From contig NC_134029.1 in NCBI RefSeq assembly GCF_964204645.1, positions 6,882,001-6,946,000 on the forward strand: a stretch of DNA of 64,000 nt. The letters run 5' to 3'. Origin of the DNA: Tubulanus polymorphus (Eukaryota; Animalia; Nemertea). Below are positions 31,101 through 57,167 of the stretch, piece by piece. Numbering within the stretch: position 1 is the stretch's first letter; every line of letters starts with the position of its first letter. A program made the translations under genes and the position numbers. The notes below the pieces were generated by a model. That model did not search any database. It was not told the origin of the DNA and worked only from the letters and a program-made list of their open reading frames with translations.

Positions 31101-31361
31101 AATCAACTAAAGCATTATCGTTTTTATTTCTTGTTTAGAGCAAAAGTCGAGGTTGGAAAAAAGTCTACGGCTTAATATTAAAGAAATACCACCCGGATTA
31201 TGGTCGATGACACCTTGCATATTCAATTGATAAGAACTAAGTATTATCTATGTTTTGTTGTCAAGAATTTTTGTGGCTGCAGCGATCAGTTTTAGATGTT
31301 GTTCCCGATGCTCTCGTGACGATGTTGCGGTCAATGGCAGCCGAACTCGCGCTCACACATT

Positions 31362-34300
31362 CTAACCAAACGATATCTGGGATTGTCCGCCGGGAGGAGC
31401 CATTACCTTAGTAGATGGTTTTCCGGACTGAAATACAGAAAAGAATCAATTCATTTCACTTTTATCATCGATTGAAACGTCCTTCCCCAGGCAGAGATAT
31501 AAACGTGATGGTATCGCTAGACTCAGCTACGGTACAAAACCCTGCCACACTAGACGACCGGATGTGGCACCAATCAGATTGCCCGTTGTATTATAGCTGA
31601 GGCAAATTTCACAGATAAACTGTAAATGGAAAAGGTTTGAATCCTCGCCGGTGGAGGATAAGTTTGAAAATAACTCAAAAGATTCTGGCCCCCTTTTGCA
31701 GGGGTTCGTACCAACTAAAAATGGCATCAGTACAAAGGATTACCCAGTAACTCGCCAGATACTTGAATGCGATGCAAAAACATGTACTGATTATTTTTTG
31801 ATTCAGGAGATTCGGAAAATCGAAGGTCTGAACGCATTTAAACACAGTCTGAAACATCTGCTTTTCTCTGTGAAGCGTGTGGACTGTAGATGCAGTTTTC
31901 AGTAACCATAAGGCGTGGGGGAACATCTTTTAAATGAAACAGGCAAAACATTATTATTATCGAGATCTGTACTCACCTCATGAACAGTAGTTGTATGAGT
32001 CAAGGGATTATAGGATTCTGAAAATAAGGCAATATAAAGAAATCATTGATATGCACATGATCTACAGAAAATGTATCATTATGAACATGGAGCCTCATCA
32101 TAACAAAACTGGACACGAAATCTTTGACCCAGTCATAAAACGTAACCAGCTTCAAGACTCTTATTTAGACTAAATGGACAAATTTTCCAGTATTCTGAGG
32201 TTCGCTGTAATGAAGATCCAAGGCAGTCATATATGGGACTAACAATAGAAATGAATGGGAAAACATCATATCTTGGAATTAAGGCAAAAACTGTGTAAAA
32301 CATAACTTCATTGTAAACACATTTAATTTTTAATGAATGAGAAGAAGTATTTCAGAATTCAGACCTACGAGACAATATAAATAGGATAGAGAAACTACTC
32401 AATCAATCACAGACAAGTGATAAAATACTGTACCATTCTTAAATGTTCAAGGGCAAGTTGCAAGTGCAACTTCGATCCTTGTGTGATGATTGTGATTGTG
32501 ATTGATTAGTAATAAATGAACAAAAGAGTTTCATAAGTAAACTGAAAATGAAGAAGTGTACAACACTAAATAATCTAAATATGTTTCATTTTTTATTCAG
32601 CCTCGATTAAGACATGAAAAGAAATTTTTTCAAGTAGTAGATAAGCGTTGATTGATATCATTGTGTGGAAGTCTTGAATAAATCGACAAGAAGCCCATCA
32701 ATAATTTAGTCTTATTAGTGTTTCCTCATATTTTGTTAGTAACAAGATGATTCAAGTAATAATTCAATTTGATTCATGAAATTCTAATTTGGACAGGATG
32801 TAGAACCAGAATCTAATACGTGTTATCATCTCTGATTGGTCTAGATCTGAGGAGCCTTGGTTAATTAACCAGAACAGGGTGCAGTTTTCAAGGAGTTTTA
32901 AAGGAGAAAATTTCACATTTCGAGGAAGTGTTTGTATCACGTTCGTATCCCAAAGAGCATTTTCCATTTTGAAGGGTTTTTAAGGAATCAACAAGTCGTA
33001 GGGACTCTGCAAAACTGCTGCTCTGAGATCGACAAATCAAGAGTGAGAACACGGTAAATTGACGAGGTTCTTTATTTTCACTCGATATAGATATAGTTAC
33101 ACTCGAGAACTCTGAAGTTATAGATAAATCTATCCGTAAAGTGATGCAGAAAATGAATTCGCAGTTCAACGGTGATGTGAATATAAGTGAGCAATGAATA
33201 CCGCTACCTTTCGCTTTACGATTAAAACCTCGTTCGTTATCTAAAGCGCCTACACCTACAATAGGATCGCGTTCTGTATGGAGGAAAAGTTAAGGGAAAA
33301 TCATTTAGTTTCTGCGTTATAAGTATTTCTTTGAAAGTTCTTCTAACTCCTTCGAACACACCAGTTGCTCTAACACGCAATACTGGACTTGTGAAAACGA
33401 CCCATAGACAAATTGAGTTCATAGTCTAATTCTAACTGATAGAATGGGATCCACTGTTTAGAGCGACTTTCATAGACTCAGTGAGTTGAACCACTCAGTC
33501 AGAGGCAGCTGAAATAAAACTTTCTAAATTATTCCAATATATACGAGATAATGTTTTGTACACCAGCAACCGTGGACATAAAGCCTAAAAAAGAAAAAAA
33601 TTCGATTAACTCATAGTATCTAACACTATAACCCTTAAAGGCCTACCATGTGTGTGTGTGGAGATGTGACTGTATTCCCTAATTCAACTGTGTTATTATC
33701 ATACATATCAATAAAATCTACATACACTAATACTCGTAATAATATACAAACATCTTCAGGTTTTCGAAAGAAAATACCACCACAGAAAATGAAAAGCCGT
33801 TTCCATAAAAACACAAAATAGAGAGCTAACAAATTCTATGCCTTCCAACTTTTTAACGACATGGCAATCATTTATTCATTGAAATGAAGCAGTAGAAATT
33901 GTCAGCATTATACCTTTCCATAAACCATATAAGTAGTTATACATAGGTAATTACTTTTATTACATTTTTTAAGATGAATATATATATAGGACTTCAACAT
34001 AAAACAACATAGCATACAATTTCATAATAATAGTGATTACATTTCCCAAAGCTCCGCTAACCGATCGGTGTGTATATATGGCGATTTAGAATATAAGCCC
34101 CGCTGGTGCCCGCGCTAGTTGTTTCGTGAATTCGCGCCTACCTTGCTGGCGAGGAAAAGCCTCCTCTAAGTCTCAGCGATATCGCGGTACCACTGGCATT
34201 GTCGAAAAACCTACAGCAACAAATCGTGTATTCTCGATAAGAAAAAGTGATAAGCAAACAATATTGTCACCGATACCGAAATTCTCGCCGCTATCGTCAA

Positions 34301-37300
34301 AGCCAAACTTCAACAATATCGCTCCGACTCATCCGAGTTCAAGAACTAAGGTATCGTAGATTTTACGAGAAGTTTTTTTTCTTGACGTGACAACCTCCAC
34401 ATTTAGAGAGATTTAAAAAGGTTATTTACCATCGTTTGACTTAAATTCAAGAAAACTTCTCCAGAATAAGACATTTCCCCCTAAAAATTTTTCAATGGCA
34501 AATTTCATTCAAACACTGGCGCAAATTCTCCGGCAAGTTTAGTACGAAATCGAAAACTACGTGCAATCCACAGTTACAAAGTCGAGGAAGTCAGGGGTGT
34601 GTATAGAGGATCGTTGCGTGTGGTGGTGAATATTGTAACAGTGATAGGCACAAAAAAATGAATAGAGAAATACAGCAACGAACACCACAGACAATCTCAA
34701 ATAATACCTCTTACACTATGTCTATTTAGAGCGGATGATGGACGCGGGGATTGCGAAGTATGTATGTCATATGACTGACAATCCGTGCCGGTTAACGGGT
34801 TCGACGATGATCGAGCTAAAATAACGCATTTAAAATACGATTAATTCGATACTGGTAAATAATTCGATAATTAACGCACGTCATATATCGGGAACGGGGA
34901 ACTAACGCCGCGATCGCACGGAGACGATTTGGCCCGCGCCAAGTTGCCACGGATCAGGCTGGGCTAAATTTGGCCCGTGCCTAATTAGAGAGCGCGTTCA
35001 CGCGTAAACCACTCACTCAATACTAAACAATGCTTAAACAAAGCGAAGTGAGTCACTTCCAGAACCAGTTCCAATTCACCCGCAATTATTTGCTAACATT
35101 CGGCTGGGGCCAAAAATGCTCATGCGATCGCCGCTAAAGGCACAGTTGCTCACTAGAAGAGTTCACCAGATGGCGCTAACGTGAAGTCAGGCTTAACTCC
35201 ACATTTATTATCAAGTTTATACATACAAACTCATAATGAATAAATCACAAATGAGAAATAAACTAAGGTATTCAGACAATCAGATCACATAATCTGATTA
35301 CAGTTAACTAACTTTTTATATTCAGTGGCGCCAGGTGGTTGGATAACTTGCGCTGACAGTATAGTTCCCCGTTCATCAATTTCATAATGATTTGTGTGAA
35401 GATTTAGATTATTGACATATTCATTCAATTTCATCTACCAATAGGAACCACAGCATCACAAAGACTCGAATGTCATTTACCATTTGACATCAACAGCGAG
35501 CAGGAAAGACGAAAGGATTTTGAAGATGAAGGAATAGAAACCATAGGATTCCAATACCGGAGGGTTGATGAGAAATCGCAACTCTTATAATGTACTTCAA
35601 TTTTGCAATTCAAACAATCATAATCGATACGTAAAAATATCTTTCATGAAACCAGGCCTAGGTTGAAGTTTCACAAAAGTGTAAGCTAATTAATTATTTT
35701 TTGCTAGCGATTAATTTCGAAAAATTTTAAGTTAAAATTCTCCACAAATGCCAGTCCAAGTACATAGGAATCGTGGGTAGAAAGCATATATCGGGAGAAT
35801 TCTACAAGTCCATGATTTGGAGCAAATTTGGTTGCCAGAAAACTGAGGATTGTGATACTCCCTGTGGGTAGAAGGAAAGTATACCAGCAATAGGTTATTC
35901 AGATAAAGTAGAGTGAAGACGATACAAGCAAATGTCTAAAACGCTATTTCTCACAAAATACAGAAACTATGAGAACACAAAATTTTTCACTACACATCAA
36001 AGTGCAGTGATATTAAACCACCGTCAAGTTACTGTACTGTAGTAGAAACAACACAATTCTCAGCTATAGAGTACGTAGGTGAATAAGACTGGAAACTAGT
36101 ACCACCTGATAGTGAAAACAAGCAACGCGCATGAAACGGAAAAATCTATGAATATATTTGTAGAATACCTTTTTGACGTCTGGGAGTCCGTGACCGGTTG
36201 TCATAACTGATATCAAAGGATTGGCAATTATCCCCCGTAATGGGGTTGCTAGAGCTCACTATAAAGATCAACAATTTTCCGCGATTAATAGCTCGAATAA
36301 TATTAGGAAAAAAACGAACATTTTATAAGAAAATGTTGGAAAACTTTTCATATGAATTTTGAACACGCGAATTTTATTACATTTTCGAATACAAAGGAAA
36401 ATATTGAAATAAATTTTTCATTGCCCGAATTTCAATTACAGATTTCAGATCGACTAAAGGACATCTAAACTATCACGACAGATACAGCGGTTACTACCAA
36501 GTACGACAGTAGACACATAAGTTTGTACCTTTGGACTGCTGGACGGCTACTTTAGACTTGGACTTGAATTCAGGTTTCAGCGTGTAGGCCTGGCAATTAT
36601 GGCCCGTTAACGGATTACAAACTGCGTGATAAAACAATATTTTCATCGACCGAGAGACATATTCTCTGGAGTACTCTAATGTAGAAAGCCGACAATAGAA
36701 GAATATAAACAGGGCTGCCAACCTCTAATAAGTGCATCAACAAGACACATCAAGAAATGTTCAAATCAATTGGCAATCAATGGTAATGCCATCAGTAACA
36801 CCTTTCACATTTATGAACATATGAAACATATCAAATCAGTATTTCTCGTGACAAAATACTGAGAAATCAGGGAAAGTTGGCAGCTCTGTATAAATTGAGC
36901 TCGGCAACGTCTCAATTCAGTGTTATCAAAATACATGTCATTGTTATTCTTCTATTGGAAAATTGTTTTTCGAGATAAAAAAATTCTGGACTTTTCTCTA
37001 AAACAAAACATTTACGACTACGGGTAAACGAACCCAACTAACAATTTCTTTCAGAATAAAACAAAGTCATATTTGTATGCATTCTCAAGATTACATTAAT
37101 AGGTCCGGCTTTTTTGGGGTATCATCAACAACGGAACAACGGAATAGGGAAATTGAGTTTTTCTTTTCATTTAGAAAAATTTTGAGCCCCTGATGAATTT
37201 CGATTGAACAATAATATGACGAACAAAATAACCGCTGATGAATAAAAATTAATAACAAAAAAAATGTAACAAAAAATCACTCATGTAAATGAGAATCATA

Positions 37301-40300
37301 ACGAATTTGATGAATAATGATGTCTACCTGAGTTAGCCTTCGGAGTTGGCTGTCTAGCTTTACTAGACGGTTCACGATGGATGTCCCAACAATCGCAGCC
37401 ATTCCCGGTGATCGGGTTAGAATTCGCTAAATCAAGAAATCACATGCATGATGAATGATAATAATGGCGGAAAATAATCCGAGAAAAATCCAATTAACGA
37501 ATTACTTAAACATTGAGTTGATGACAACGAAATGAAGAAACTGAATTCACTTTTAATGTATGTTGACGAAAACACTTAAAATATTGACAGAGCTTTTAGA
37601 ATATTTAATTCTAGAGGTATTTGCATTCAGGGCGAATAAAGCACATAGTCTATCTATATATTATTATGCTCACGAAAGGCAAGTAGTGAATTTACAAAAT
37701 TTTCAGAGGGAAAAACTTGATAACAATAAGCAGCAAAGTAGCAACGATTGCAAATGGTAAGCAAATATTTCAATTAACGAAACCGCATCATTATAATACA
37801 CTATAGAACCGCAACGAAACTCAAACAAACCACCGCGGAAAAATTAAGTCTCGACAACTCTTCGAAAGCGGTGAGTTCTTTTTCATAACACGGTCAGTAA
37901 ACTCAAGAGGCCCATTCCCCGTGGTACCGATCTAGGGGAACCTACGATGTCTTAGACATACACACCCGCTATTAGGTGACGATACCATTTCTAAGACAAA
38001 TTTGAAATTTGAATTAATCCGATTCCAAAATGCTCTCAAACCTTCGTATACCACCTCATCTATAAGTACCGGGTACTACTATTTTGTACTCAGGCTAAGA
38101 TAGGACTGCAACTCAGTGTAAGGCCGAGTCTACTGGACCTAGATGAACAGTCATGGCTAAGATTTAAGACCGGTCTAAGACCACCTTGGTTCTATAGCCA
38201 ATCGCAGCTAATCTAAGACCCCTTTTGGACTTAAGGCACGACTGCGCAACTGGGGCCAGTTGCTCAAAAGTTGGTTGGAGTTAACCAGTGGGTAGTTGAC
38301 ATAGTGACAATTAAAAGTTCATTGTTACTATGGTATTTATCCGCTGGTTATCTATAACCAACTTTTGAGCAACCGGCCTCTGGGCTTTTTTTATTGTTTC
38401 TCAACTGTTTCAAGAAATGACAAAAATGACGAACAGCCTTCGAAGAGTTTACTCGTTCAGTGAGAGGAAAAACAACAGCAACGTCAAGATGATTATTAAT
38501 CTACCTCGTTTCACGCCAAGCAGACGTCGTCTACTTTGTCGAGGCGGTGTATTCTCACTGATGCTACTACTCGTTCCACCCGTAATCGGATTCGAGCCGC
38601 CTGAAATAATCAATCACCGACACAAACCTCAGTGCGTGATGCATATAATTAGAAAACGTATTCGACGTTTTGCCTTTCATCTGTAACAGTCACAGTTTTA
38701 CCTTACGTGTCGCAACTCCAAAATCATGGTTTTAGACTTTCGCCTAAAATCTTAATCCAACAGTACCAGAGTTTCGCAATTCCATTTGCTTCAATATAAA
38801 TTTTAGGAAACTCCAAAATTACGATATTTTTTGTAAATCGACTAAAATTTTGCCCGCACTCAATCAAAGAAATCATGTCTCCACTTCACGACCGCAACTG
38901 GGCGCCGACCTTCATCCCTTCTTGGCACAGTGAAGACTAAAATTTGGGCCGGTCTTAAATTCTACTGGCCAAAATTAAGTCTGAAATGGCCCTCAATTAT
39001 CAGAATTATTGGTTGAAGAACAGATGAACGACAATACGTCAAATACAGCGACAAAGTGCTCTCCTTCGCTCGCCTTTGTTGTTTGCTCGGGAATTCATTT
39101 TTGGAAAATATTTGAGATCACAAAAAAGAACCTCTTTTTGCTTGAATATCAAAATACATTTAAGAAAATATTTACCATACAGATAATTAAAAAAAAGAGA
39201 GAGAGAGAAAGGTTTGAATTGATGATTTAGGATGGATTGGTACGCTATATGAAGACATTTTTAAAATAAACAAGATTAATATTATTTACAAAGACAATAT
39301 TTTTTTTTGACGAAAGGAAAAATACAATCATGACAAAACAAACATGACTAATAAAGTGAAGGGCGATTTATTGGTAGATTTTCTATCTGTTTGCCCGGGG
39401 AATCTTTATTATAACATAGATGAAGGTAAGTGATAAATAATGTGTACACGCAACAAAGATAAGTGAAGAAATCCGAAGCCTACGATTTGAAAATGAACAG
39501 GCTGATGTGAATGGATAATGGATAAAAAGCCCTTAAGATGCTCACATCAAAGCTTCGAATAAGCGATGATAACTACTCCTAGAAAGGAGGTGAATATCCT
39601 ATCTTCCGTATACCGCAACTGAATGCAATAGCCTTTTCCAGCAAAACCTTACGCCCAAACCATATGATTGAATGACATAAAAACAAATGAAAGGAACCAC
39701 ATCAAGTCTAGTAGCCACAGACTCTCACAGAAATTTTGGAAAGGTCATTATGTGGGATTGTCGAAAAATGCTGAAAAGGTTACTACTATGATCGCCTTGC
39801 TAACTTCTCACAGTACCCGTATCATATATCATGTTAACCGTAACTAAACCGCTGATGCACCCGATACCAGTAGGCCGATATGAATTTAAACCTTGGAATG
39901 CAGCGTGGAATCGAACGTCACCAGAAAGGAAACCAAGCAACACTGGCTACGCTCATGGATGAAAACATATATTAAACCATCCTCCCTCGGAATTCGAACC
40001 TTATGGCAACGCTAGGCTCAGCCATGGCACGAAACCCTGCTACACTAGACCCAGTACGAGGGTTTGCTGCAAGATAACTTGCGGCAACAATCAGATTGCC
40101 TGTTGTATAATCGCCGAGGCAAATTTCACGAATAAATCATACATGGAAAAACCCGGGCTAAAATAAAACAGGATTTCTGATCAGCTGGTGATGACAACAT
40201 CCAAGCTGCACATCTAGCTGCGCACTCGGGCTAGTGTGGCGGAATCTCATACCGTGGCGTTCCATCAGGTTCGAGGACGATATCTAACTGGCTCGTGAAT

Positions 40301-43300
40301 ACAGGTGGGATATATACGTATATTATGTACAATTTCTACTCCTGTCTCTACCTTGGCGCTGCAAGTCACGACACACGGGATTCCGTTTCAGACGCGTGTA
40401 CTCCTGACCGAGATCGCCGCGGCCGGTGATCGGATTGCGATTCTCCTGATTCGACGGGCGTCTGCTGCCCAGTCGAGTTTTCGACGGGTCTCTACGATGC
40501 GGGTACAACAGGTCGAACTCTTCGGTGCCGACGCCGGCGATCGGGTTTCGCGGCACGTTGTCTATTATCAACGGAAAGAAGAGATTTTAAAATCGGAGAG
40601 AAATCTTCGATCAAAAAGATGTCTGTCCACGTTTTAGATGAAATTTCAATCGGAAAAACAGATGAATCATGCAGGAAGTATCGTTTCGAAAAAATGTTGG
40701 ATATAGTAGACTCCGCTTGCCTCAGATCTAGTGGGACCAATTGGGGCAGTTGGAGCAGGGAATGGGAGCATGATAATTTGTGATATATTGTCCGGGGCAT
40801 GCAGGGATAATCTGAGGCAACCTTCCGGGGATTTGGATTAAAAAGAAAATTTTGTAAATCATCGAATTGTTCTTCTCTCGTCGTGGATTCGAACATTCTT
40901 GGTAAGTTTAGGAGCAATTTCGAATAGGTTGACATCAGAACTATCGAAAAAAGAAAATATGATGTACCAGGTACTAATACTGGGTATTACATTTACGGGG
41001 CCGACGCAAATGTCAACTCTTGAGCATTACGAACAAATAATCTTGAAATATTTATACGTTTATGGGCGAGTTCCAGAATATTTTTCTTTGGTTCGACTAT
41101 GGATAACTCCGGGGCAAACGGCGTCTGCTGTAGCCAAGTGATAAAGATTTCTGTTTTATGATGATATTGCTTTTTGGATAATATCATATGTCATTACCAA
41201 TCCATCTGTCGGGTGAAGTGCATTATTCGAATAAAAAAAAAAATACCAACCCCAAAACCTGACAGAGACCTTACGTTTTACCAGTAGTGCGATAAAAAAA
41301 AGCCGAAACCTGTAGAGAATTGCAATTGAACAAACCTTCGACATTCTTCAAAGCAGGGCGTCGCTTGTGCACTTTCTGTTCGTTCTCAGTACTGAAATCT
41401 CCTTTACCGACAACCGGGTCTCGTTGAGCTAGATTTATATACATACATACACAATTTAAATTCGTTTCAAAAAATTTAAAAACTCTTTGTAATTGGCGGA
41501 TACAGATTTTAGACAGAAGACGAAGAACTAGTAGATTACGAATCAGGGTTCAGAAATCGGGTGTACAAGAGATGGAGATGGAAACTTTTTAGGTGAAGGT
41601 TGGAGATATCAGGAAGGTCACCGATGAAAATAACAAATTGCCGAAGAAAATTCCGCAACCAAGAATATATAAGGATAACCGTAAACACCACGGATGATTG
41701 AACAAGCGAAATTACTGGAGAACCCTAAACTCGGTAATCAAAAAGTCGATAGTCGACTTAATTCAATTTCGACCGGCATCACGCGACGAAAAATCCAAAT
41801 TAGATCTTCTTAATTGTAAAAGTGCGCAGTTCAACAACCAAAGCGATAACCTAATATAACAGCATTTGCGTATGCAACGCGTTTCATCTTCTTAAAATCC
41901 AGAACCTAAATGCGACTATATATAAAAGTGTTTATTTCCATGCCTGCTCGAGATTGAGTTTTTCAGCTAAAAAAGATGTACCTTCTTTATGACAAAAACG
42001 CTTGCTACAACGTTTTTCCGCCGGAAAATGGCCCTTGCCTTTAATAGGGTCGCGTGTGACTGAAATTCATCATAATATATCAGTCAAAAAAAAAGAAATT
42101 ACAACGTCCTGCCTTCCCACGATGATAGAAAATCATGTACATGTACTAATCACGGGTTAAATATGTAAAGAATTTGAGATTTTTTCCAATCAAGTCGAGT
42201 AAATGAGAGCAATATATACAGTAAACTTAAGATTTCTTGTATGATAGATATGGGACAGAAAATCCTCAGCATAAATTGTTATAGCTTGGATTAAATCCAG
42301 GAGTCAGTTACTCAAACAGTTACAGTTAACCAGCGGATAGTTGACATAGTGACAATTGAAAGTTCATCGTTACTACAGTTACTACAGTATCTATCCACCG
42401 GTTGTCTGAAACAAACTCTTCGGCAACTGGCCCCAGGACCTTAAGTTTCATCATGGGTATAAGTTAGAATCGAAATCAGTTTATTTTCCAGCGATTTGAC
42501 GGATACAATCGAATTCGGATTTAACTGGAAATCTAACCCCACGGCCTATGTTGGAACTTAACGAATCCGGGCGAACTATAGTTCATAGTTAACTGTATCA
42601 TAAACCGAAGCGTGATAACGATAAAAGATAATAACAGCCCGAAACCTTCTTCTGTTCGCTGGAGACAAATTCTACCTTTTTCACCGATGAAAGAGCGACG
42701 ACACCGACGTCCGGACTCGCGTAGAGGGTCGCGCTCTCGACCGAGATCACCGACACCCATTAATGGATTACGCTGGACTGTAAGGATAGGTTACAAGCTA
42801 CCGTGTAGTACATGTTGAACAGGTGAATGGGGAGTTTAGTATAAAGATGGTCCTCGTAAAGCGGGAGAAGGCAAGGTTCTGATGACAGAAGATAGAATAA
42901 GCGCGTTTGATTGGATGGCTAGTTCGGTCCAACTGACTGTACCAGCCTTCGGAGCTGGTTATTCCAGTCTAGACCAATGGGATACCGGCACCAGCAGATG
43001 GCGCAACAAAACGCCGGGTTATTCGTTGTGAAAAACAGTTCATTTTGAATGAAATCAGAACTAAATTTACAGGCTTCCGAATACGAAAATTATCAAACAT
43101 CATTGGATGGATATAAGATTCACTTTCTCAGTCAGTGTAGTTCTGCCGGTATGCCAGTGAACATGACGGGGATACGAGGCGACTAGTCAGCTCCAGTCAG
43201 CCCAATCAAACACACCTAATATACATCCCAGAGAAAGCAGGATTCAGAGAAGCGTTAAGAAGTCAGATTTCCGAGATTTGACAAAGAACGACGGTGTGAT

Positions 43301-46300
43301 GTACTAAGGTGTACAGATAGACACAAACAATACAATTCTATCACAAAATTAGCAACAGTTTTCCACTATGTTTTAACACTTTCGAAGCTGTGAGATACAC
43401 AAGTAACGGAAGGAGTTTCAATATAGTTTAAGAGTAGTAGATACCTGATTTCGACCGCGGTGTTTTCGGTCGTTCGGGTCCTTGCCGCGCCGCGTCGTAC
43501 GAAGTCCCGAGTTCCCCGGCTCCAAGAATCGGATCGCGCACAACTGAGAAAAGTCATAGCGACCAGGAAATGAAATTCATGCGATGTTAAAAAACGGACG
43601 GCCGGTTTTATAGACTGCTATTACGTTTAACCCGGGGGCAAACTCAATTGATAATGAATTGAATTAGCCTTTGGGTTAAAGGTAATACTAGTTTATAAAA
43701 CCTGGCCCGATGATTTGAAACTTAATAAAAGACTTAACTTTAAATTATCTTTTTACATATTTTCTGAATATTAGACGGATAATTCTTTTTTTGATTTAAA
43801 ATTTTTTCATACTCATTCTTCCACCATGAAAATAACTGCACACTAGAACCCGTGAAACAATATACCAACAAGCCAAAAAAACTAAGACAGAATTTAACAC
43901 TTATAACAACACACTTGATACAAAACCATAAGTAACAAAAGGTGATATTGGATGGAAATATTACTGGGTTGTCTCAGTAATATTTCATTTGAAAAAATAA
44001 ATCCATGAAGCAAATGCTGAATTTTCTAAAACCAAATCACAAGGTTCATAGCCCCAGTGACCACGCAAACATGAAGATGACATCTTCCAAAGACTACCAG
44101 AACACAATATTATTTTGGACTTTATGGAAAGTTGTGCCAAAAAAATTGAAAATCGTGTAAATATCACTGAATTTCAACTACAATCTGAAAGCAGACCTTC
44201 ACTAGCGCGCTATGAACCCTGAACTCACCAAAGCTGCTTAATCTAAATACTGAATCATGTGAAAACACTGTAACATATCGTGTACACTATTATTATATGC
44301 ATATTATGTTTTGTATGTTTTGTACCTCGTGGTATTTTCGATTTGAACGGTGTTTGAGGAGATATACACCGGAACGGTTTAGTAGGGTGCATCTCGCCAC
44401 CGAGATCACCGGTACCGGTGACTGGATTGCGATTCACATCTAAAAACACATCGATTGCAGAATATGAGAGACATCAACGCGGATTCAAGAGTTCGAGGAG
44501 AGAGTTGTGTTCACATCGATACAAGGGACCCAAAACAAGACACCAGTGATTATACTGTAGACTTCACCTATAGTGGTAGCATCAACAAAATGTTATTGGC
44601 AAACAAATAGATTTTTGGATTTGTCTACATTGACAAACAAGAAAATCGTTTCACTATCCTATCGCTTTTAACCCAAATAGACCGGTTAGTACCACAATAG
44701 GCACTGTCTACTGTACCAGTATTTCAATGGTGTGCCGGTATCAATTTGCAGACTGGACCAACCCCTAATAAAATCTATCATCATTCGTTCAATTCTTTTA
44801 TCATAGAGGCCTCTGTGTACATAGGAACACAACAGTTGTAGCCTCAATACGAATTTCTTAACAGCCACATTTTTAACCAGATTGCATTGGTTGCATTGAT
44901 GTGAACACACCTCTGAAAATTTCAGTGTCAAAGATCGTCGTAAAAAACTACCGAAATAAGAATAAACATAAGTGCGACGAGAAAGTCAACGTTAGACCAT
45001 CGACCGTTGTTTCGAAGAATTGCTAACCCCGAAGTTCGAAAGTTCTTAATGCCCGTGGTATAAAGAGAGGAGAAAACACTCGTGAATTTGGAAACGAAAA
45101 AGTTACTTTTCCTCGAAGAGAAATGAACTGTGTATTGCCGAGATTGAGATAACGTGCTGGGAGGATGCAAAACGGTTGTTGTTTTTTTTTAAATTTCATT
45201 GAACACCACACTAATTTCTACCTTTTCTCGATTTCGGTATTTTTGAAACCCTCGGCGACCTTTGTAACGGGTCATACTCTGAACCGAGGTCGCCCAAACC
45301 GGCAAGGGGATTTCTTTCTATAAATAGCATTCAAATTATTACATTTTCATCAAATCGCGACAATATTCAAATGGTTTACGTCTCTAATTCATTTCAAAAT
45401 GTATTTATAGCAATATATCTGAAAGCTGTCTATACAATATTCGATCTCAAAGGATAACCATACTTGAGTTACTGTTTGAAAACCATTTGGCAAAGTTGAT
45501 ACCCAGCCTCCTAACGGTACTCTCCATGCAATTACTACGAGCAATTACTCAGGAGATGGGAAAGGAGAGGCTGAATCATTTGGCCCCCCCAACATAAGGA
45601 GCCAAAGGACCGGTTGGCCTCAGGGGTCTACCAGGTTCCCCGGGGGCCCAAGAGTTAGGCTTATCTTAATTGCTCGTATAGTAGACCGAGTACTTAGCTA
45701 CCAGCGCGTACAAATAACTGAATATTTGATCCACTGGGCCAAGTTTTGTACTAAGGCAGAGAAACTGGATGCCCCGCTCTATTGGTACATCACCTATGCA
45801 ACTCAAGACTAGTTAAGATTCGAACTGGGAGCATTAACTTTAGATTTCAAACTTTGCATAGATAAGCTGAGAAACTTTCTTCGTAGGAATGTTTAATATC
45901 TCGATGATAGTAGTCATACGCCCGCGCACCAACCGACTTCCGAAATAAAACTGAACATTACCTTGCACCGGGGTGACAGAACGACGACATTGCGACGTGC
46001 TGCATCTCATCATATCAGCATCGGGCTCGAACGCACCTTCCATCGTAATCGGATCTCTAATCACTATCGCGTTTATTCGAAATTTAAAAAACGAACGCGA
46101 AAAAGAAAGAGAGAGATGTTTGAAATAAAAATTCGATATGCGCTCACACCGCACGGTAATCAACTCCACGCGTGTAAAACGATATTATAACTCTTCGAGA
46201 TTTGTCGGTATAAAGCAATTTATCGGAGATTTTTGGTTCGAGTGCTGCACTCGGTACTCGATGAAAGAGGCCACCGACACACGGGAATAAATCAGTCAAC

Positions 46301-49300
46301 ATCGTTACATAGGCCTAGGTACGTTATAAGACTCGAAGTGGATCTCATTACCGATTTATAATACTTCATTATTGACGAGACATTAAAGTGGGCAGTTTTA
46401 TGTGATTAATTTTCGCATATTTCGAGAATGTATCCGTCATACTCGAAGGGGGAACTTCACTGCAATAACTTCACTCGGCCGGCAATAGAATGCTTTGTAA
46501 CTTAGTCACGATAATAATGATTTTAACACACACTCTCAGCAGCTGTTATTTCAATGTAATATGACTATTAATTTCATACGTATCGAATCGATGTTAAATT
46601 TCAATGTACAACGCCGTTTTAGAAATGGTTCATTTACTGTTCGAATTAACAACTGCAGCCCCAGCACCGTAATAAACGAGCATACCAACACCAGACTACG
46701 TAGTTAAGTATAACCGAGAAGTCAAATAATTACGCCATGTTCCAACTATAGAGACCCTTATAAAGAAGCCTGCCACCTAAATCCCTAATATGACATCATC
46801 AATTTCACCAGGGATAAAAATGAACATACTCTTTTAAATATGCTTTTGGTATTCTCACATCAAACATTCGTAAGAACAGACTTGTTTCGGTCCTTTCCTT
46901 TTAAATGGAGACCTGAATGTATGGACTTATAGCCCAGTGTGAGTGCTCCTCTTGTTCTTAATTGAAACGAACTAATTTCACACGGTTCTTAAGGATATAG
47001 TGTGAACACGGTCATGCACAGATTCGGGACTAGGCAGTGATCGTGGAAGGGTCTACGTGGTGAGGATTTGAGATTGGGAACAAATCAGCAGCGATCAATT
47101 ACTACATCTGGGCGCTGATAGAAGTTAACAAGATGTCGCCCATTCGAAAAATCAATATTCAAGTACGAAGAGTTCGATGATGACCATAAAACTCATGCAG
47201 ATTCAACAGCACTTGTAGATACTGAAATTTATAAGTTGCATTTTGCCATCTACTCAGTACTGGCGGGTCTAGAGGCCAAAATTAAATTCAGCATAAAATA
47301 GTCATAAATGTATTTTCTGGTCAGCCTTTGCACTATTAATCCGACCAAATGGCAGTCTAATATTTGCATAAAGAATGAAACCACAAAATATATTCTCATG
47401 AACTTTTCTAACAATGACTTTAATAGTTAAATGTTATGACAAAATCAGTGTTTCACTCGCATTCAACAGTTCATTGTTACGGCATAATCTTACAAGTTGT
47501 TTACCACAAAGACTTAAAAGAGTTTAATTTATCATATGGCAAGGTCCTTAAAGGATTAATTCGTGCTTCTACCATCAAGACTTACATATACGCAAAAGTA
47601 ACATACCTAGAAAAAAGGCAGGCCAGCGAAGAGCGAATGATGGATTAAGTACTACTTCTATCTACAGCGAGTGTATAAGTTCTATAGCCGGCAATGGACG
47701 CGCCTACTTCTCAGCTGAATCAGATTAACTGTCGATACATGCATGTGACAATACTATACAGTGATATCGCATCGGGAGCTGCTCAGCTCATGTTATTGAC
47801 TAATCGTTACTGTATTTCATACCTCAAACCGCTGTTGATACGTAAATAACCGAATGTGACACATGCGTCGTGTCGTGCTGCATGTGCTAGTTCGAGCTCG
47901 GACCTCCCATAAATTATCAGTCATGTAACAAGCCCCCTCCCCGGAAAAATTAGATACCGCATCGGCGTATGGCCAAAGATGGAACAATGCAAATCGGTTC
48001 ACTTGCTTTCAATTTTAATAATTTATATTAATCAATTTGATTAATTGGGCTTAACTTTCATTTTAGCCGATAAAAAAAATTTGTTCGCTGAAAAATTTTC
48101 TGCCTACTGTAATTGACAAACCCTATGTACTATCAAGATTGAGACTCAGAAGTGCTATTTTTGTACGCCGTACTATGTTTGGGGCCTTTCCCTGGATGTA
48201 AAAATCAATTTGACAGCTGTATATTGAATATTGAAAGGTCTGACTCGATGTTACGCTGATTAATTACCGTATCAATACCTCAGCATTATAACCCGGGTTA
48301 TGGTCGAAAGACTGAAGGAGCCAATGATGATAACCCGGGAGATCAGAATTGAGTCCTGGATATAGTCAAGGAAAAACAAAATAAATACGAGATTTTGACC
48401 CAACCTCTGTACGGTATACGGCTACGTAGGGTGTCATTGCATTAGACTAATACCGGTAAAAAAAATCCTTGAGCACTTAAAGAAATGTTGGATGATATAA
48501 ACATATCTTAATTCCACTTTTGAATAAATCTCTTGAAGACTGGCAGAGGGTAAGCATTCTGATTGACAATGGACTGTACAGGTCCTATACAGCGGCATCT
48601 TTTGCAAGGTGCTTTAAGTATTCTGTGTACATTATCTTCTTCTTAAGATCCAAAATCAACACCGTACCGAAATGCTAATTTAAACCCTTTGAGGAGTCCT
48701 CATCTAGTTTGGAGAGGGAAAGTGCATACGTAACACAATGACAACATTCTAAGGTCTTCATGATAGATATCACAAGAAAAAGGTGCCTTGCTTTAGCTTA
48801 CACATGCTTGTTGGGCCGCTGTTCCTCCCAATGTCAAAACTGGGATCGTCGCAGTACGAAAAAGACTTCACTATTTAAAGCGAGTAATACCGATACCAAT
48901 AAAAGCATATGGAAAGATATGAATTGAAAATGTGACGCACCAAGAATTGAAGAAATGATATGGGAAAACAAAATACTTATCACCCGAGGTATAGTCCGTG
49001 CCAAACACCATTTACACTTTTGAAAACATTTGTGCCGTACACCATCAAACAAGAAAGCAGAGATATGTGAATCGATAACAAAAAAAAACCAAAAAATAAA
49101 TTGCAATCGGTAAAATGTACCTCTCGGTTTCGAAGGAGTCCGTAATATACGAAGTTTATGGTTATAAGGAGGCCTCGTATCGACTATAAACGGGGGTGGC
49201 TCTGGTGGAGCTATATAAAAAACAATAATTTCATGCGTAATATCAAAAAGAAAAATACAAAAAAGAATTGTATTTCACAATTTCTGGCATGTTTGAATAG

Positions 49301-52300
49301 AAAATGTACTACTGCTAAAATCAAATCTGCTATATTTTTCTGTATATCGCATATGGGGAAAAAGCTATAAATTACAATATCGGACAAGTGGCCTGGGAAT
49401 AACGATTATTTGTACGCACGGTGGTACATAGGGGACGCGATTTTTAATGTACACGCGATATGAATATTTCGCAAACCGATTCGAAAATCTTTTAAATTGT
49501 GGACGATCAAAAATCTACTTCGCGTATCAACGTCGAGTGATTCCTGCGCGGAATTAAGACGGTCAGTCATGTATGAAATTAACAACATCTAAATAAGGCA
49601 ATCGATCCCTCTATCAAGAGAGAGGCGTGTACATATACATCAGTACGCTATTCGCTATTCGCAGCTGTACAATTTTCGAACGTGAAACAGCTGTTACCGG
49701 GACTTCGATCGATTCTATTATCATTCAAATATGCGTTTTACACGGAACTCCGCGCGCGTTTATAGGGAGTATACCATTGTATATAGTCATCAGCCATATC
49801 AATCTATTATAACGCCTAGACTATAGATTTCGTCGCGATAAGTTTTTTTTCCGCGACGGATTTACTCGATGCTACGAATACCCTTAGCGCGCGTATCGTA
49901 ATGACGGTAAACTCCGCCTTGTACGAATCTTATCAATAACCGGCAAAATCAACAAAACTACTTCACAAATTTGAAAATAGATTTCAGGAAGATTTCTACC
50001 ATCGGTAGCAACTTCACCGAGTCTAGGGCGGAGTTTACTGAAAATTGCTTTGAACCATAATTAAACTGTAATTTTTATGAATACAGAATATCTGAATTTT
50101 TTTTGTTCGGAAACTAAATGTTTCTTACATGCTACTACGCTATATTACGTACGGCAATTTCATATCTTCACAGATATTTTCCTGACCTCACTTTGTCAGA
50201 CATATTTAAATGACTAGAACCCCTGATAATCGAATTATTTCCTGATTTTCATGTCGACTTTCCGAGCGACAGATTGTTAAAGGACCCACGCGCTGACCGA
50301 CGTACATATTAAACATACCTTCATCGTCGAGATAACCGCCGGTCAAATCCTCAATACTGAACGCGTAACTACCGGGAAAGTGGTGCGGCGACGGTGGACT
50401 ACGACTCCTGACTCCGGGACTCTGGCGTATGACCGCCGGCGGGGGCGGCGAGTGATGCCGGTGAGGCTCGTGTTGCGACGGTATCAGCAACGGCACTTTA
50501 TCCGGTTGGTACTGCGCGCCGTGAACCGGGCAATACACTATACCATTCACCGGCCCGTACATGAGGCCTTTCGGAATCGGGATATTTTTTTTCGTCGTAT
50601 TCTGTTTTTTCTCTTGAAGGAAACAAACACAGCAAATCAAAAATGATAATACAATTGTCTGTAAGAAAAGGCAAAAATATGTTGAATCTGTTGGAAACAA
50701 AAATCCTAATATCAATTCGACCTTACCTACTGAGGTTGTAAAGTAACTATCTACCGGACAAGAGGCATTACAAGGAAACAAATAATGAAAAAGCAATTAT
50801 ATGCATTTTATGATCTATAGGGCGTGGGCCCGTATGACTCAAAGTACATACTATGCACAGCAAATTGACAGATTTCCGTGGATAACATCCAGACCCAGTC
50901 GAGGAAAAACTTGATAAAATACGTACGAAAACAGCTGTTGACACAATTGTCAGTTTAATGCAAAGCCTTTTGTTTCAAAATAGAGCTGGGCTTGCTAGGT
51001 ACATGTATGAAAGATAGAATCTAAAGACCATGTCACGATCTCTACGTAACTCACTTTTTGGATGTCCGTGCTGATGCATGTTGACTAAATTCCGCGAAAA
51101 CGATAACAGAAATACAAAACGGAGAACGCGCTCGTAAACGATGCGGACAATCCGTGAATGAAACGGGGAAATGTAATATCCGAAATATACTCAAAAGAAC
51201 GCTACGATTCAGACAAAAATCCAGGACGGTGTGACACAACGAACACTGCTGGGATGACAGTTGGTCACCGTCGTTTGAAATGATAATAATATTAATCTGG
51301 CTTGTGTCACGTTAGTCACAGCTGCCCCCTCTCGTAGCGACAACGAGCGCAACATAGAATATCTATATTGCACAGTTTCTCACTACCATCGACGCGAGCA
51401 GCATCGCTACAAAGTCAATAATGCACCTGGCATGATTATTGACATAAAAAAGGAATATCTTTAAAAATATGTCATAGCGTTCGAAAGAAAATGTTTGAAA
51501 ACCTTTTGGGGCCCAGTCGTTGAAAGGTTACTCCAGTCAGTAACCTGTCTGTGGTTTAGTTTCATGATCTGATATTTTTTCACAAACCAGTCAGGAATGT
51601 TGCTTAATCGCTGAAAGCATTCATAAAATCGCGCTTGTTGGTGAATCAAGCCATTAATTGCCAACTGAAGTCTGATAGAAAGTATGTTTTTGAAGCGTTA
51701 CTTTTTTCAACGGTGTTTCAGCCCTCGGTATAAACCCATCCGAACGCTTACCAAAACGATAAGGTAACTAACTTATTCATGTATGGTTAAGACCTAGTCG
51801 TAAAGTCGCTAGAAAGAGATCTGAAATGGAACCAGATCCCAAATCTTCGGGACCAACTGAAATCATATTTGACGACGCGCCTGCTGCAAAATAACAAAAA
51901 CATCATTAAACACCCTTTACGCTGGCGGATCCGTCCATACCTTTGTCGCATTTACAAATCTTCGGATAATCGTGTCTGTATCGGCGAACGAATTTGAATA
52001 ACATGAAGAAGAGAACACGACACGGAAGAGTCCAGCATTTGCACGAAAATCACACCACCGAATAGCGATCGGAGATTTATGTAAACACACCGGCGTACAG
52101 CGACCGTGTAGAGAACGTGCACACAATACTACAGGTAAATTCATTAATATGCTATTAATTCGACGTCGAATTCGACTGAATTGTAACAGGCTGCGCGATC
52201 GAGAGACTCGATTATATTTAAAGCCATGTATTGCACTATCTCTTTTTATGGTTGAAATATTATAAATGCAAAAACAACGCGTTCAAACCATCAACATTCT

Positions 52301-54748
52301 AAATATGCGGGCACAATTTACAAAAAGATAAAGTCATTTAGCGTCCGCGGAACCAGTTGATTCGCGCATTATCTCGCAGTAAAAGGGTCGATTCATCGGA
52401 ATTTATCGGCAAATGTTTGAAAATTCTTACGAAGAAAAAAAACTTTTGAAAATTCCACTGCTAATTGTAGGCCTACCATTGACTCACTCAAGTCACTCGA
52501 GTCAATTATTGAGTCAATTATTTCTTCACCGCTCAGAATTCTATTCCAAGACCATACTAAGAGAGAGAGTGGCCATTACACCGTACACCAAAGGCCATGG
52601 CCGCATGAAAATACGATAAAACTGTATTGTATGGGTTGGCAGCTTTATTATTGCGTGAAAATACTTAACTTGCCTTGCCTACTCAACGTGACAAACTGAT
52701 TAAAAGTAAAAGAGAACTTCAGCTTCCAGGGGTTGTCACTAAAAACCTAAATAATTCGAACCTCTTAGAAACCGGAAAAAGGATGTTAGTCATAATAATG
52801 TATATATATATATACGCTTATGTAACAGTTCAATTTGATTGATCAAGTCTATAGTGCCATAGTCCAATGGTTAAAATAATATGTCAGCATTGTGAATGAG
52901 ACAACGGCTATCCGTTATACTATGATGAAAAATGGAATGGGGTTAACATGTTGTGATGAAATAACCAAAACTGGAAAATGTGCAGAATTGACACTAAATA
53001 CTGTGCAAAATGTACCTAAAAAATACCTGAAAAATGGTTTCTAAATAGCCAAGCTATTTTACTGCAAAATGACAAAAGCCTTTGTAGCAAGAAAACGTTT
53101 TCAGGTTGGTTTGATTTACCTATCATTTATAGTCACATGTCCACACACACACACATTGATAGGAGTTCATAAAACACATGTAACAACTGAAACCGAAAAC
53201 TTGGGTCTTTATTGAATGAAACACAAGGTAGATTAAGATTCTAAAGTACGTTCAACCTCGGTTAATCCGTTATCGGATAATGAATCCATATGGCATAACG
53301 TAGATTGGTCTAGTTTTAAACTAAGTTACCCCCATGAGATTTCTGTGTTTCCATTACACTTCAAATTTGTGGTCCTATTGACCCATCACTATCAGTGAGG
53401 AAGGAACGTGCATTTGTTTTCCTCGAAATATACTGGGTAACTGTGTATAGACGGGCCACATTGTGCCTGTTAGCTAAACAAAATAACAGGTACCAAAGGA
53501 CCTCCTTCACTTGATGGTTTTTTCTTAGTTTCAGAATATTACTTACAAGTGTCTGATTGTAGGCAATTCATTCACCTGCAAACTGGATATTATAGGCCTA
53601 CAGGATAATGCGCTTAAATCATTGTTTATACCGATTATAGGCCTATCCAATATGTACAATTACAGATCTGTTTTCACTAATCCGTACTAAGAAGCTCGGT
53701 CCCGAATGATACAGATTAACACCGAGGTTGACTGTACGAGTAAAACTGTTTAATAAACTGGATCAGTTTAATCTGGCTTTTCAAACCTTCTTAAAAGTGA
53801 AACAAGAGATTTTTTAAAAAACCAGATTACCTATTTCATAGGCCAGCGGCCGGTTGCTTGAAGGTTAAACTCTTTTAACTGTTGCTTAAAGGTTAAACTC
53901 TTAAACCTTTGAGCAGCCTGCCCCTGATTATTAAGGGTTTCTCGCAATTCCTGAAAAGCGAAAAGTTGTTAGAGGTAAGGGTTCTAGCAGGTTAACACAT
54001 AACTACCATATCATCGCACCCCGAACATGATAAGTACATCTGAACTGAAAAAAAATGAAGTAAGTCCCAGTTGAAAAAAGCCATTCCTGATAGGCAAGGC
54101 CTAGAACATTTTGTTTAATACAATGAATCAGGATCCAATGATGACAAAAGTTGTTAGAATAAGCAGCATAATTCAAATAAACCGACGAAAAAAGCAAGAA
54201 ATATCTGGAAATGTCATTTTGACACCAGGCCGGGTATAATTAGAAATAGTGGCTTGGTTAGTTTCACACGCAATTTTCAACTTATTGTATTCAACTAGGG
54301 CCGATTATTTTCTCCGTTTTTGACTTACTCGGCATGTTTTTCGTCGGAGACGAGGTGCTCTCTTCACCGCCTCCGAAGATAGACGAATGAGTGTTAGATT
54401 GCTGTTGGCGAGCTGCCGGCTTATCATCGGGGGCAGGGGCGCTGCCGAACACGTTATTCTGAGGGGGTGGTGGCTTCGGTTTATTTTGAGCGGCGGGAGT
54501 CGGTTCATCGCTACCACCAAATAAGTTGATAGACGTTCGGCCGCCTGGTGGAGCCATAACCCTAAAATGAGAAATAGTACCGGAATAAAGTTCTGAATTA
54601 AATTCAGCAGGCAGGTCAGAGGAAGGGACACAGACTATATATAGACCCGGAATTTTGAAGCGAAATATTTCAGAAATACAAGACGTAATTCTTACTTAGA
54701 AGTCGGGCGACCGCAGTCGTAGCCTTGATTCGTTCCTGTCGAAGTCAT
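31362..54748 (-). CDS. Jupiter: Jupiter/HN1 (JPT) family microtubule-associated protein with a 15-cassette exon array (130 aa minimal, up to ~714 aa)
   Basis: First exons 54748-54696 and 54561-54329 (MTSTGTNQGYDCGRPTSKVMAPPGGRTSINLFGG...). Last exons 32017-31977 (ESYNPLTHTTTVHE) and 31427-31362 (SGKPSTKVMAPPGGQSQISFG*). PPGG motifs at both termini and NP[VI]TG motifs are hallmarks of Jupiter/HN1. Phase-1 cassettes: 50612-50319, 49210-49121, 46063-45962, 45317-45222, 44439-44326, 43543-43445, 42777-42676, 41428-41336, 40561-40352, 38600-38505, 37426-37328, 36621-36529, 36258-36169, 34815-34708 and 33273-33208. Confidence 0.85.
31521..31632. repeat. Dispersed repeat; second copy at ~40012-40150
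   Basis: Shared ctcagc.a.gg..c.aaaccctgc.acactagac...caatcagattgcc.gttgtat..gaggcaaatttcac..ataaa...atggaaaa in both places. Confidence 0.65.
38254..38378. mobile_element. Hairpin MITE; related copies at ~42300-42434, ~53845-53925 and ~62697-62765
   Basis: TIRs ggccagttgctcaaaagttggtt / aaccaacttttgagcaaccggcc with an internal palindrome (catagtgacaat / attgttactatg). Confidence 0.7.
43600..43707. mobile_element. Hairpin MITE
   Basis: ggccggttttatagact..tttaaccc / gggttaaa..agtttataaaacctggcc inverted pairing. Confidence 0.6.
53247..53736. mobile_element. TA-flanked TIR element (Tc1/mariner-like MITE)
   Basis: tacgttcaacctcggttaatc ... gattaacaccgaggttgactgta inverted termini. Confidence 0.55.
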
Positions 54749-57167
54749 GGTCGCTTTTAGCTCTTAACAACAATCGTAAACGAGGATTTTCTTTCTTTTT
54801 CGGTGTAATTTTCAACCCTGAGAAGTTTACTTTATCTATGTGTGCGGTATGGCGCGTGGGAGATTGTGTGCCGCACTAGATCACACCGCATAACCCAGTT
54901 GTTACTAAAATTGAAATTTAGAGTTCTAGAGCCCGGACTGAAGTTGTTCGAATTTGTCGTTTAATAAATTAATCTAATCAACCAGTATTCTTTAATTGTG
55001 TGGAACTTTTCAAGCCCTCAGAAATTGTAAGTAAATTAGATATTACATGTATTGCAAGGTATATGTTGATGATCTCAACTTTTAGCGGCAAGAAAAACAA
55101 AATTGTCATCTGTTATCTGTTTTTCTGAACAATTCAATTCAATAAATATTGAATATTTGCTTCCAATGAACATGGGGTTAGAATGAATCTCAAAATAGCA
55201 AATGAATTAATAATATAAATAGTTATCATATATGTATATTGTAGGTTTGACTCATGTGAGAAGAAACTGATGCAGCTGTAAAAATGGTTCGGTTGAAAAA
55301 TAGGTAAAATATTCCGAATTTGCCATTGTCCGGCTCGTTCTGGGTCTTTCAAATGTGTCATCACATTCAGAGATTTTCAAGTGTTCCTTATAGGGACAGT
55401 ATGGATCCAGTATCAATGACCAGCACCACTGAAGAGTCAATGATCCTTAATACTGGTCCCATTAGTTATTACAGGGGGTCTTAATCAATGTGACAAGTCC
55501 CGCCCCCCTGACTGTGAGAGATTTTCAGTACCTGATATGCGATTTGTATTTTTGCTTCGATAGGTACCTACTATGCGAGATAATCTATGAAAACGAAAAC
55601 TCAGTCAGTACATCACTTACGGCTTTCAAAATATTGAATTGTTTGAAAGATGCCGTTTTACAAATACATGGAGTGTACGGCGGATCTTTGTTAAAGGCTT
55701 CTATATCTGGTAAGTACCGTAAAACTAAAAAAAAACCAGCAACAAGAAGTATGATTAATTTCCCATTTAAGGTCCTTTAACTTGTGCTAAGATGGACCAG
55801 ACTGTGGTTTAGATTGGTATCCTATCCCATTTTACTAGCATTCAATAATCATTGCATTTTCGCCTACCAGTATTTAGCTCCCCTAAATTTTGCTTCGAAG
55901 CATTTTTTTGTTGATAACATCTCTGATAGGTGAATTATTGTTGATGATTTGCGCTATTTTCTTTTTTCAGTAAAATATTTCAATGAAAAAACGAATATTG
56001 TATTGATTCGCGCAGCGCGGGGTTCGCACAAATTACTTCAATCTGCTATGACGTTTGTACAGAAAATCGGGGACTATTCTGCATTCTTCAATACTATACA
56101 CATTGGAGGTAGGTTCATTATAAATGCGTTGACCAATTAAAAACTTCCAGTCTATAGTAGCTGTATTCTAAGTGATTAGCTTATGGATCCTTTTATAGTC
56201 TATTTCTTATTCATCCTGACTATTGGGAGTTATAGTCAGAGTTTATACATTCATTTGTCAATTTTCAAGTACCAGATTCTAAAGTAAGATATTAACTTGG
56301 AATATAATTGGGGCACCTTGGTATGTGTGGAGAAATGTCAAATTTACCGTACCGTAAAATTTTTCAGGAGAAATTCCCATGAAATCTGTTTAAAGTTCCC
56401 ATTCAGCAGAGAGTTTATTTTGGCCCTATATTGGGCCTAATCATTTTAGCTCATTTTTGGACTTAAGACCAAAGAAATATATTCATATACATATGACTCT
56501 GGTAGACTGGTATAAATCTCAGTACATGTATTCAAATTTGATAAACAAAACCCACAGTTGATGACTTCATAATTCTAATCTAACAGTTTATTTAATCTTA
56601 GGCTATGTAAATATATCATTTACGTGTTTATTTTTTTAGGAACGATCCAATCATGTCAGAAGTTTTTGATGAAATATAATAAACGACAGTTAAAAGTTCT
56701 ACTTGCTTTGGTCTCGAAAAAAGGTGTTATTGTATTCGATTAGTATTAGAAAGTTTGAAATTTTTCTTGTATGAAAGTTTTTGATATCAATCCTTTTTTC
56801 TTATTTTAGAAGAGAGAAAGAAAATCCGCGAGAATATCAAACAATGCTCGATTGTCAAACAAAATCCATATTTAGAGGAAAATGATGAAAAAATGGTTTC
56901 TGATAATGATTGATACGTGTTATTTTGTTTGTAAATAAATGCATTTAAATATTTTGAAATCTTATTTCTTCATTACCATGGAAATCTTAGCTTTTCACTC
57001 TGGAACAGGTTCTTCTACAGTCTATTTTTTCATGATGAGCGGTCTGGAGAGGCCGAACTTAACGATTCAGTAATGATTGAATTCTATATACGATTATCAC
57101 AGAAACTCGTTTCGGAGTTGTAGGTACTGCAAAAACAAGAATCAGCATACGGTACATTACTGAATTT

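Follow-up and report, generated by a model that had tools for sequence, protein, structure and literature searches.

An array of repeat exons within an intron of a Jupiter-like gene of the ribbon worm Tubulanus polymorphus, and its relatives in Lineus and flatworms

We analysed a stretch of 64,000 nucleotides of the Tubulanus polymorphus genome (Nemertea; NCBI RefSeq assembly GCF_964204645.1, contig NC_134029.1, positions 6,882,001 to 6,946,000; hereafter the window, numbered from its first base), which holds a gene of the Jupiter family and, inside one of its introns, a long array of small exons that encode a repeated motif. A six-frame motif scan of the window placed the Jupiter-like gene on the minus strand, with PPGG motifs at 54551 and 31397 and the repeats in between. 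The gene starts with exon J1 (54696..54748; 53 nt from the ATG, ending in phase 2, donor TAA/gtaaga) and exon J2 (54329..54561; 233 nt, phase 2 to phase 1), which carries the N-terminal PPGG. It ends with a penultimate exon of 41 nt (31977..32017; phase 1 to phase 0), which has a single NPLT motif, and the last coding exon (31362..31427), whose translation contains the C-terminal PPGG and the stop. In J2 and the last exon, PPGG is followed by Ser and Phe at a spacing that differs from the exact PPGGxxSxxF, the terminal pattern reported for Jupiter/JPT proteins (PMC12803092). J2 matched the N-terminal PPGG exon of Lineus longissimus (26/59 residues identical, pairwise E 1e-07). Thus the PPGG at both ends and the J2 match bore out the Jupiter-like identity that an earlier note on this DNA had given to the host gene. 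The four outer exons together would encode a short Jupiter computed at about 130 aa, and the Jupiter intron that houses the array is 22,311 nt long.

All 15 array exons listed in the earlier note were located on the minus strand and had the lengths stated there (294, 90, 102, 96, 114, 99, 102, 93, 210, 96, 99, 93, 90, 108 and 66 nt). Each is preceded by an AG acceptor and followed by a GT donor, has AG as its final two bases and is open in phase 1. The totals of 130 and 714 aa in the note were also correct as sums. The list was nevertheless incomplete. A 78-nt repeat exon and a 69-nt exon containing TGA fall within its range, and two internal first exons lie just upstream of that range. Every one of the 17 array exons is in phase 1 and has a length divisible by three. 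The description of mostly one repeat per exon held for most of them, but the 294-nt exon and the 90-nt exon next to it have no repeat and the 210-nt exon has two. Within 54329-32017, the minus strand contains 14 copies of [ND]P[ILV].G. An in-phase [CT]AG acceptor lies at most 17 nt away from 13 of them, the remaining one being the second repeat of the 210-nt exon. Markov-resampled controls (n = 200) contained on average 0.5 motifs, and 0.045 with an acceptor (maxima 3 and 1), and the same scan of the plus strand found one motif and none with an acceptor. The exon array is therefore real, well beyond chance.

The 210-nt exon matched three proteins with 100% identity, all of them products of Tubulanus polymorphus RefSeq LOC141906064, which is annotated as uncharacterized. 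Isoform counts given here cover nine proteins of this locus, X1-X7, X9 and X10, and leave out X8 and one cluster partner of X10. All nine start inside the Jupiter intron, end in the 69-nt stop exon and contain neither J2 nor any PPGG. Eight of them begin in internal first exon A (coding part 51941..52004, donor AAG/gtatgg), and isoform X2 begins in internal first exon B (coding part 51055..51079, donor AAA/gtgagt). The proteins have 9-12 repeats and 451-553 residues. Further, the Tubulanus array protein is basic (pI 10.1) and predicted to be disordered (Atlas model pLDDT 0.39).

The repeats fall into two classes. When 64 units from nine proteins were sorted by pattern, 38 belonged to class A, R[DN]P[ILV]xGxG[DEN][LF]GxE, and 26 to class B, NP[LIV]TG[ED]NCxS[FY]D[IV]. 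Class A units mostly come first and class B units after them. The median spacing of units was 32-34 residues in all six proteins measured.

In the order of transcription, E1 (50319..50612; 294 nt, Pro/His-rich) and E2 (49121..49210; 90 nt) form a leader without repeat and are present in 9/9 models; E2 weakly resembles the Lineus stretch that precedes the first repeat. Class A repeats follow in E3 (45962..46063; 102 nt, a variant form, 8/9 models), E4 (45222..45317; 96 nt, 0/9), E5 (44326..44439; 114 nt, 8/9), E6 (43445..43543; 99 nt, 9/9), E7 (42676..42777; 102 nt, 7/9), the newly added 78-nt exon (41982..42059; 8/9), E8 (41336..41428; 93 nt, 9/9) and E9 (40352..40561; 210 nt with two class A repeats, 8/9). 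A transitional repeat is found in E10 (38505..38600; 96 nt, 7/9), the best match of which is Lineus unit 9. Class B repeats occupy E11 (37328..37426; 99 nt, 9/9), E12 (36529..36621; 93 nt, 8/9; best match Lineus unit 11), E13 (36169..36258; 90 nt, 7/9; Lineus unit 12, score 94) and E14 (34708..34815; 108 nt, a clear class B repeat, 0/9; score 75 with Lineus unit 12). The stop exon, likewise new (34142..34210; 69 nt, symmetric phase 1, TGA at 34175-34173), ends all nine models. A 24-nt micro-exon at 34165-34142 had been considered and was dropped, because the RefSeq models show the 69-nt exon there. Downstream of the stop exon lies E15 (33208..33273; 66 nt, class A-like, 0/9), which matched Lineus units weakly and out of order (best score 45) and is the least supported array exon. 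E4 tops the Lineus score table (97 with Lineus unit 2) although no model contains it, and it is therefore probably a genuine exon missing from the models.

The nine models thus always include five of 16 array exons (E1, E2, E6, E8 and E11), never use three (E4, E14 and E15), and skip one or two neighbouring exons at a time. Accordingly, the earlier note was right that some array exons can be skipped. Of its 15 exons, 12 occur in models. Repeat number varies, but the models range only from 9 to 12 and the repeats are of two ordered classes.

Sequencing evidence came from four runs of one study, none recorded as RNA, over the stretch 31200-51100. Contigs of run X1 were unbroken across introns at a depth near 35-40 and were read as DNA. 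Run X3 had GT..AG joints at exon borders and was read as spliced RNA. Three exon-border joints were found among the 15 listed of its 173 joints, namely 41336 to 40561 (E8 to E9), 34142 to 32017 (the stop exon to the 41-nt Jupiter exon, with E15 skipped in this sole relevant joint) and 31977 to 31427 (the last intron). That array exons are spliced, as had been claimed, thus agrees with one array joint in X3 and with the RefSeq models. Since the stop exon is joined to the last exons of Jupiter, those exons would form the 3' untranslated region of the array transcripts. Further, the starts and the stop of the nine models, taken together with the 34142-32017 joint, make a transcript nested within the Jupiter intron the simplest reading. 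A separate nested gene, which the earlier note had listed as a finding contrary to its model, is nearly what is seen, as the annotation has its own gene, starts and stop, but the 3' exons of Jupiter are shared. In runs X2 and X4, short unspliced contigs lay at shared places of the array (34166-34792, 39655-40172, 40293-40659, 45193-46055, 48034-48304 and 49471-50025).

A 31-position profile of the window repeats was compared with 1.84 billion representative sequences (E up to 0.001). The 16 matches were Tubulanus, Lineus longissimus LOC135494118, nine flatworm proteins (two of Macrostomum and one each of Paragonimus, Heterobilharzia, Dicrocoelium, Hydatigera, Sparganum, Trichobilharzia and Echinostoma), two weevil proteins, one unplaced protein of unnamed source (P0026) and two (P0017 and P0024) that look like unrelated repeat proteins and were excluded from the family. 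No mollusc, annelid or brachiopod protein was among the 16 matches; this is a weak negative, as a follow-up search with alignment A4 returned seven proteins, missed several of its own members and says little on absence elsewhere.

The Tubulanus and Lineus proteins were 34% identical over 461 columns (pairwise E 2e-50), and the order of the Tubulanus exons was collinear with that of the Lineus units (Spearman 0.81, permutation p 0.0004). The corresponding values were 0.42 for Macrostomum (p 0.058) and 0.40 for Dicrocoelium (p 0.069), and they rose to 0.79 and 0.71 without E15, which was dropped in the knowledge that it lies past the stop exon. All 14 Lineus models, which come from a single 90% cluster so that any shorter forms would fall outside this set, carry a single PPGG close to the N-terminus and lack one at the C-terminus. 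They contain 9-12 units and share the same tail, and eight of 13 unit keys are present in all 14. Lineus unit 11 has two forms that never occur together (one in 8 models, the other in 2, neither in 4), which may be mutually exclusive exons. The models of Lineus LOC135494118 (P0034, P0036, P0039, P0040 and P0028) also differ in their first exon, of which there are three, one encoding a hydrophobic leader, and they show single-alanine differences resembling tandem acceptors. None of the nine flatworm matches contains PPGG, and one longer member of a Macrostomum cluster has it within a proline run. The flatworm proteins apparently fall into a subtype that has several class B units and a subtype in which DPITH units are accompanied by one late RNPITG unit (P0016, P0018, P0021 and P0046 versus P0014, P0015, P0019 and P0025). 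The array is conserved: it is collinear in Lineus, present in flatworms without the PPGG ends of Jupiter, and fixed in its class order. Because the two classes keep this order, the repeats do not appear freely interchangeable.

The earlier note had likened the repeat to the internal NPVTG-type motif of Jupiter, and this comparison gained ground through weevil proteins. The repeats of weevil protein P0027 matched the Pfam family JUPITER (PF17054; positions 273-324, 31.9 bits, cut-off 27), and this protein matched the array unit with a pairwise E of 2e-06. A second weevil protein with PPGG at its end, P0023, gave 21.3 bits at positions 283-359, below the cut-off of 27. The nemertean and flatworm array proteins had no PF17054 match, single exons had no JUPITER match in Pfam, and the Lineus protein with its canonical N-terminus likewise had none. 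The unit is thus probably the amplified internal NP[ILV]TG motif of Jupiter, by way of the weevil proteins and a short motif. Class B was also considered as a degenerate PPGG in the same register and set aside as a weak lead, since only 1/4 PPGG ends fell in the top 5% of background (0.042). The weevil proteins (Ceutorhynchus CAG9770264.1 and Dendroctonus LOC109543605) carry four to five copies of the motif; one keeps a C-terminal PPGG and the other has none. In contrast to the array, their copies are few and near-identical, with no class A/class B order, and their expansion is likely independent and younger. The weevil proteins P0023, P0027 and P0048 and P0026 of unnamed source represent separate motif expansions outside Spiralia, with or without a C-terminal PPGG.

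The array exons share a type of splice donor. All 17 have AG at -2/-1 and only three have G at +5, which is present in all five other donors of the locus (J1, J2, the 41-nt exon and the two first exons; Fisher p 0.002). The array donors fit the 'left-handed' class that LUC7L3 is reported to favour (PMC11842720), which suggests block-wise control. A recent tandem duplication of exon plus intron was rejected, as only two short exon-only matches and one overlap artefact were found. Since the intron flanks have no common sequence, the duplications are old.

From these results we propose that the locus makes two proteins, a short Jupiter of about 130 residues and a separate repeat protein of some 450-550 residues that is basic and disordered. 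The short form would arise when J2 is spliced to the penultimate exon and the entire 22-kb intron is skipped. Array transcripts would start at promoters inside the Jupiter intron, and their translation would stop in the 69-nt exon, leaving the last two exons of Jupiter untranslated. The array protein is predicted to bind along microtubules via its 9-12 copies of NP[ILV]TG and to stabilise a special set of microtubules. Individual units are about 33 residues long and would each cover one tubulin dimer of a protofilament, by analogy with SPM1, the 32-residue repeats of which are reported to run along one protofilament and to need all 32 residues for the 8-nm period (PMC8144581). The leading class A units and the following class B units would perhaps each have their own contact, exon skipping would trim a few units, and the uniform donors, strong on the exon side, would let the exon block be regulated together. 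The likely cell type would be one with stable microtubules, such as sperm, multiciliated or flame cells. We are confident of the gene anatomy; microtubule binding, which is argued from analogy, is a probable property of the array protein, and the explanation as a whole is one that we favour on balance.

Several points weigh against this explanation. RefSeq models are produced automatically, and the exon combinations that they show may have been pieced together from short reads. The joint evidence consists of 15 of 173 joints from a single study, and the contig with the stop exon, the 5' end of which is unseen, could derive from a J2-containing transcript. The TGA is 72 nt upstream of the final junction and, by the rule that applies in vertebrates, such a distance could lead to decay. 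A separate gene does not hold for Lineus, where the N-terminal PPGG exon is joined to the array in 14/14 models. The array donors were compared with only five other sites, all in this locus. JPT2 is reported to bind microtubules directly, in the lumen, and to need its last three PPGG motifs for this; PPGGK*S, the motif that is reported to carry it to microtubules (PMC12773733), is absent from the Tubulanus array proteins. Finally, the Mn, PYG or GFG signatures of lumen proteins were present in 0/64 units.

A rather unlikely alternative keeps the same gene anatomy and has the repeats bind a partner other than tubulin, such as actin, a hub protein or, within a condensate, other repeats. In its favour, the repeats match neither known lumen-protein repeats nor any solved chain: PDB sequence searches with the repeat profile gave one chance match (E 7.7) and with the full alignment none, and in the ESM Atlas there was no usable match by features and all structure matches had TM <0.3. 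It also agrees with the report that JPT2 is disordered, basic and phase-separates (PMC12803092), and with the omission from the Tubulanus array forms of PPGG, the part with shown microtubule activity. However, the array originated in the locus of a microtubule protein, its spacing of 32-34 residues is kept across two phyla, and its basic linkers fit the tubulin lattice, all of which favour microtubules as the partner.

The model of the earlier note, in which free cassettes in any subset are spliced between the two PPGG ends to give Jupiter isoforms of 130 to more than 700 residues in up to 2^15 combinations, is quite unlikely. The frame would permit it, as the array exons, the J2 donor and the penultimate acceptor are all in phase 1, and skipping the symmetric stop exon restores the frame to the C-terminal PPGG. 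Moreover, Lineus joins an N-terminal PPGG to its array, weevil Jupiter P0023 has five such motifs before its C-terminal PPGG, and the exons that are absent from the models, E4, E14 and E15, could belong to such forms. Yet both ends occur together in 0/9 Tubulanus and 0/14 Lineus array proteins, and a free choice of exons is not supported by the models, which carry 9-12 repeats with a few blocks skipped. Five exons are constant in the Tubulanus models and eight unit keys in those of Lineus. A search for J2 among 98 candidate proteins of 136-2000 aa found no match, a weak negative for long J2-bearing forms, and the flatworm relatives have no PPGG. It is very improbable that the array transcripts are mostly unproductive, with the stop exon acting as a poison exon that triggers degradation, because, despite the position of the TGA and the symmetry of this exon within the Jupiter frame, repeat sequence and order are conserved in two distant nemerteans and in flatworms, which requires selection on protein, and the Lineus models end in a coding tail of their own.

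Repeat proteins in which exon skipping sets valency are familiar. In tau, MAP2 and MAP4, repeat number is set by in-frame exon skipping, with units near 31-32 residues, and tau varies between three and four repeats. The array resembles them in this use of skipping, but its sequence is different and it has 9-12 repeats of two classes. In titin PEVK and comparable arrays, numerous short in-phase exons can be skipped and the reading frame is kept. The array exons described here differ in that they carry a conserved motif to which a Lineus motif corresponds in position, and their introns have no common sequence. The PPGG of Jupiter has been likened to the PGGG of tau (PMC12773733). Within the family of Jupiter, JPT1 (HN1) and JPT2 (HN1L), the host gene has PPGG at both ends and one internal NPLT, and its serine-rich IFG stretches resemble, by eye, the MASNIF motif. 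The array protein shares with the family its disorder, its basic character and the match of its repeat, via the weevil proteins, to the C-terminal part of the Pfam model. JPT2 is described as a small protein with four PPGG repeats (PMC12773733, PMC12803092), whereas here NP[ILV]TG is amplified 9-12 times, mostly with one unit per exon. Further, the array product drops the C-terminal PPGG in both nemerteans and both ends in Tubulanus, and its flatworm relatives have none. The array protein is thus derived from Jupiter and is not a canonical Jupiter. The Mn-repeat lumen proteins (SPM1, SAXO1/2, MAP6 and FAP363) are likewise disordered chains of short repeats, and the 32 residues reported for SPM1 (PMC8144581) are close to the 32-34 found here. 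However, the [TS]-[TS]-X4-[YF] unit given for them (PMC10973386) is among the signatures lacking in all array units, as is the core of the PYG/GFG lumen proteins; the resemblance to Mn-repeat proteins is one of design and not of membership.

Other features of the window lie outside the array exons. An open frame of 327 aa on the plus strand (20905-21888) matched Pfam PDCD7 (PF16021, E 8e-68). Long coding-looking frames of another gene on the same strand (5653-6744, 8698-9192 and 9875-10273) had no Pfam match; they may be FAAP100-like. High-copy interspersed repeats lie in the introns at about 34950-35060, 38250-38370, 40020-40180 (with a copy near 31550-31630) and 43640-43700, where depth reached thousands and many letters varied in all four runs. 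A (TAC)n run was seen on the minus strand at about 57165-57265.

Literature searches on Jupiter splicing, on the motifs, on the accessions and on these animals, which extended to papers without their supplements, found no description of the array. Fly isoform data that Karpova et al. 2006 may contain could bear on the motif. The main text of a survey of lumen-protein repeats makes no mention of Jupiter, JPT or HN1 (PMC10973386). The array protein is real, conserved, previously undescribed and Jupiter-derived. Its Tubulanus and Lineus exons are already present, unnamed, in automatic annotation, the tuning of repeat number by splicing is familiar, and large combinatorial diversity is not supported. 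The protein nonetheless has no family name and no solved relative, yet it has been retained in ribbon worms, in a free-living flatworm and in both flukes and tapeworms, and the locus illustrates how a new repeat protein can arise inside an old gene. Three arrangements are found, with the array joined to an N-terminal PPGG in Lineus, provided with internal start exons in Tubulanus and lacking PPGG ends in flatworms. A recent study assigned JPT2, via its PPGG motifs, to the lumen of singlet microtubules (PMC12773733), and the NP[ILV]TG motif of Jupiter has no role in the papers found. Its dozen-fold amplification, with a spacing compatible with the tubulin lattice, offers a handle for testing what the motif binds. 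It is possible, though we hold this only tentatively, that NP[ILV]xG represents an unrecognised class of microtubule-lattice repeat, a putative second binding motif of Jupiter that nemerteans and flatworms turned into a two-class ruler with one unit per tubulin dimer. If so, ribbon worms would make this ruler from within the Jupiter gene, with jointly regulated donors that are strong on the exon side, and in flatworms, flukes and tapeworms included, it would lack PPGG ends. Both phyla would in that case share the array as a derived character, and it would be a lumen or lattice scaffold of the microtubules of cilia, flame cells or sperm.

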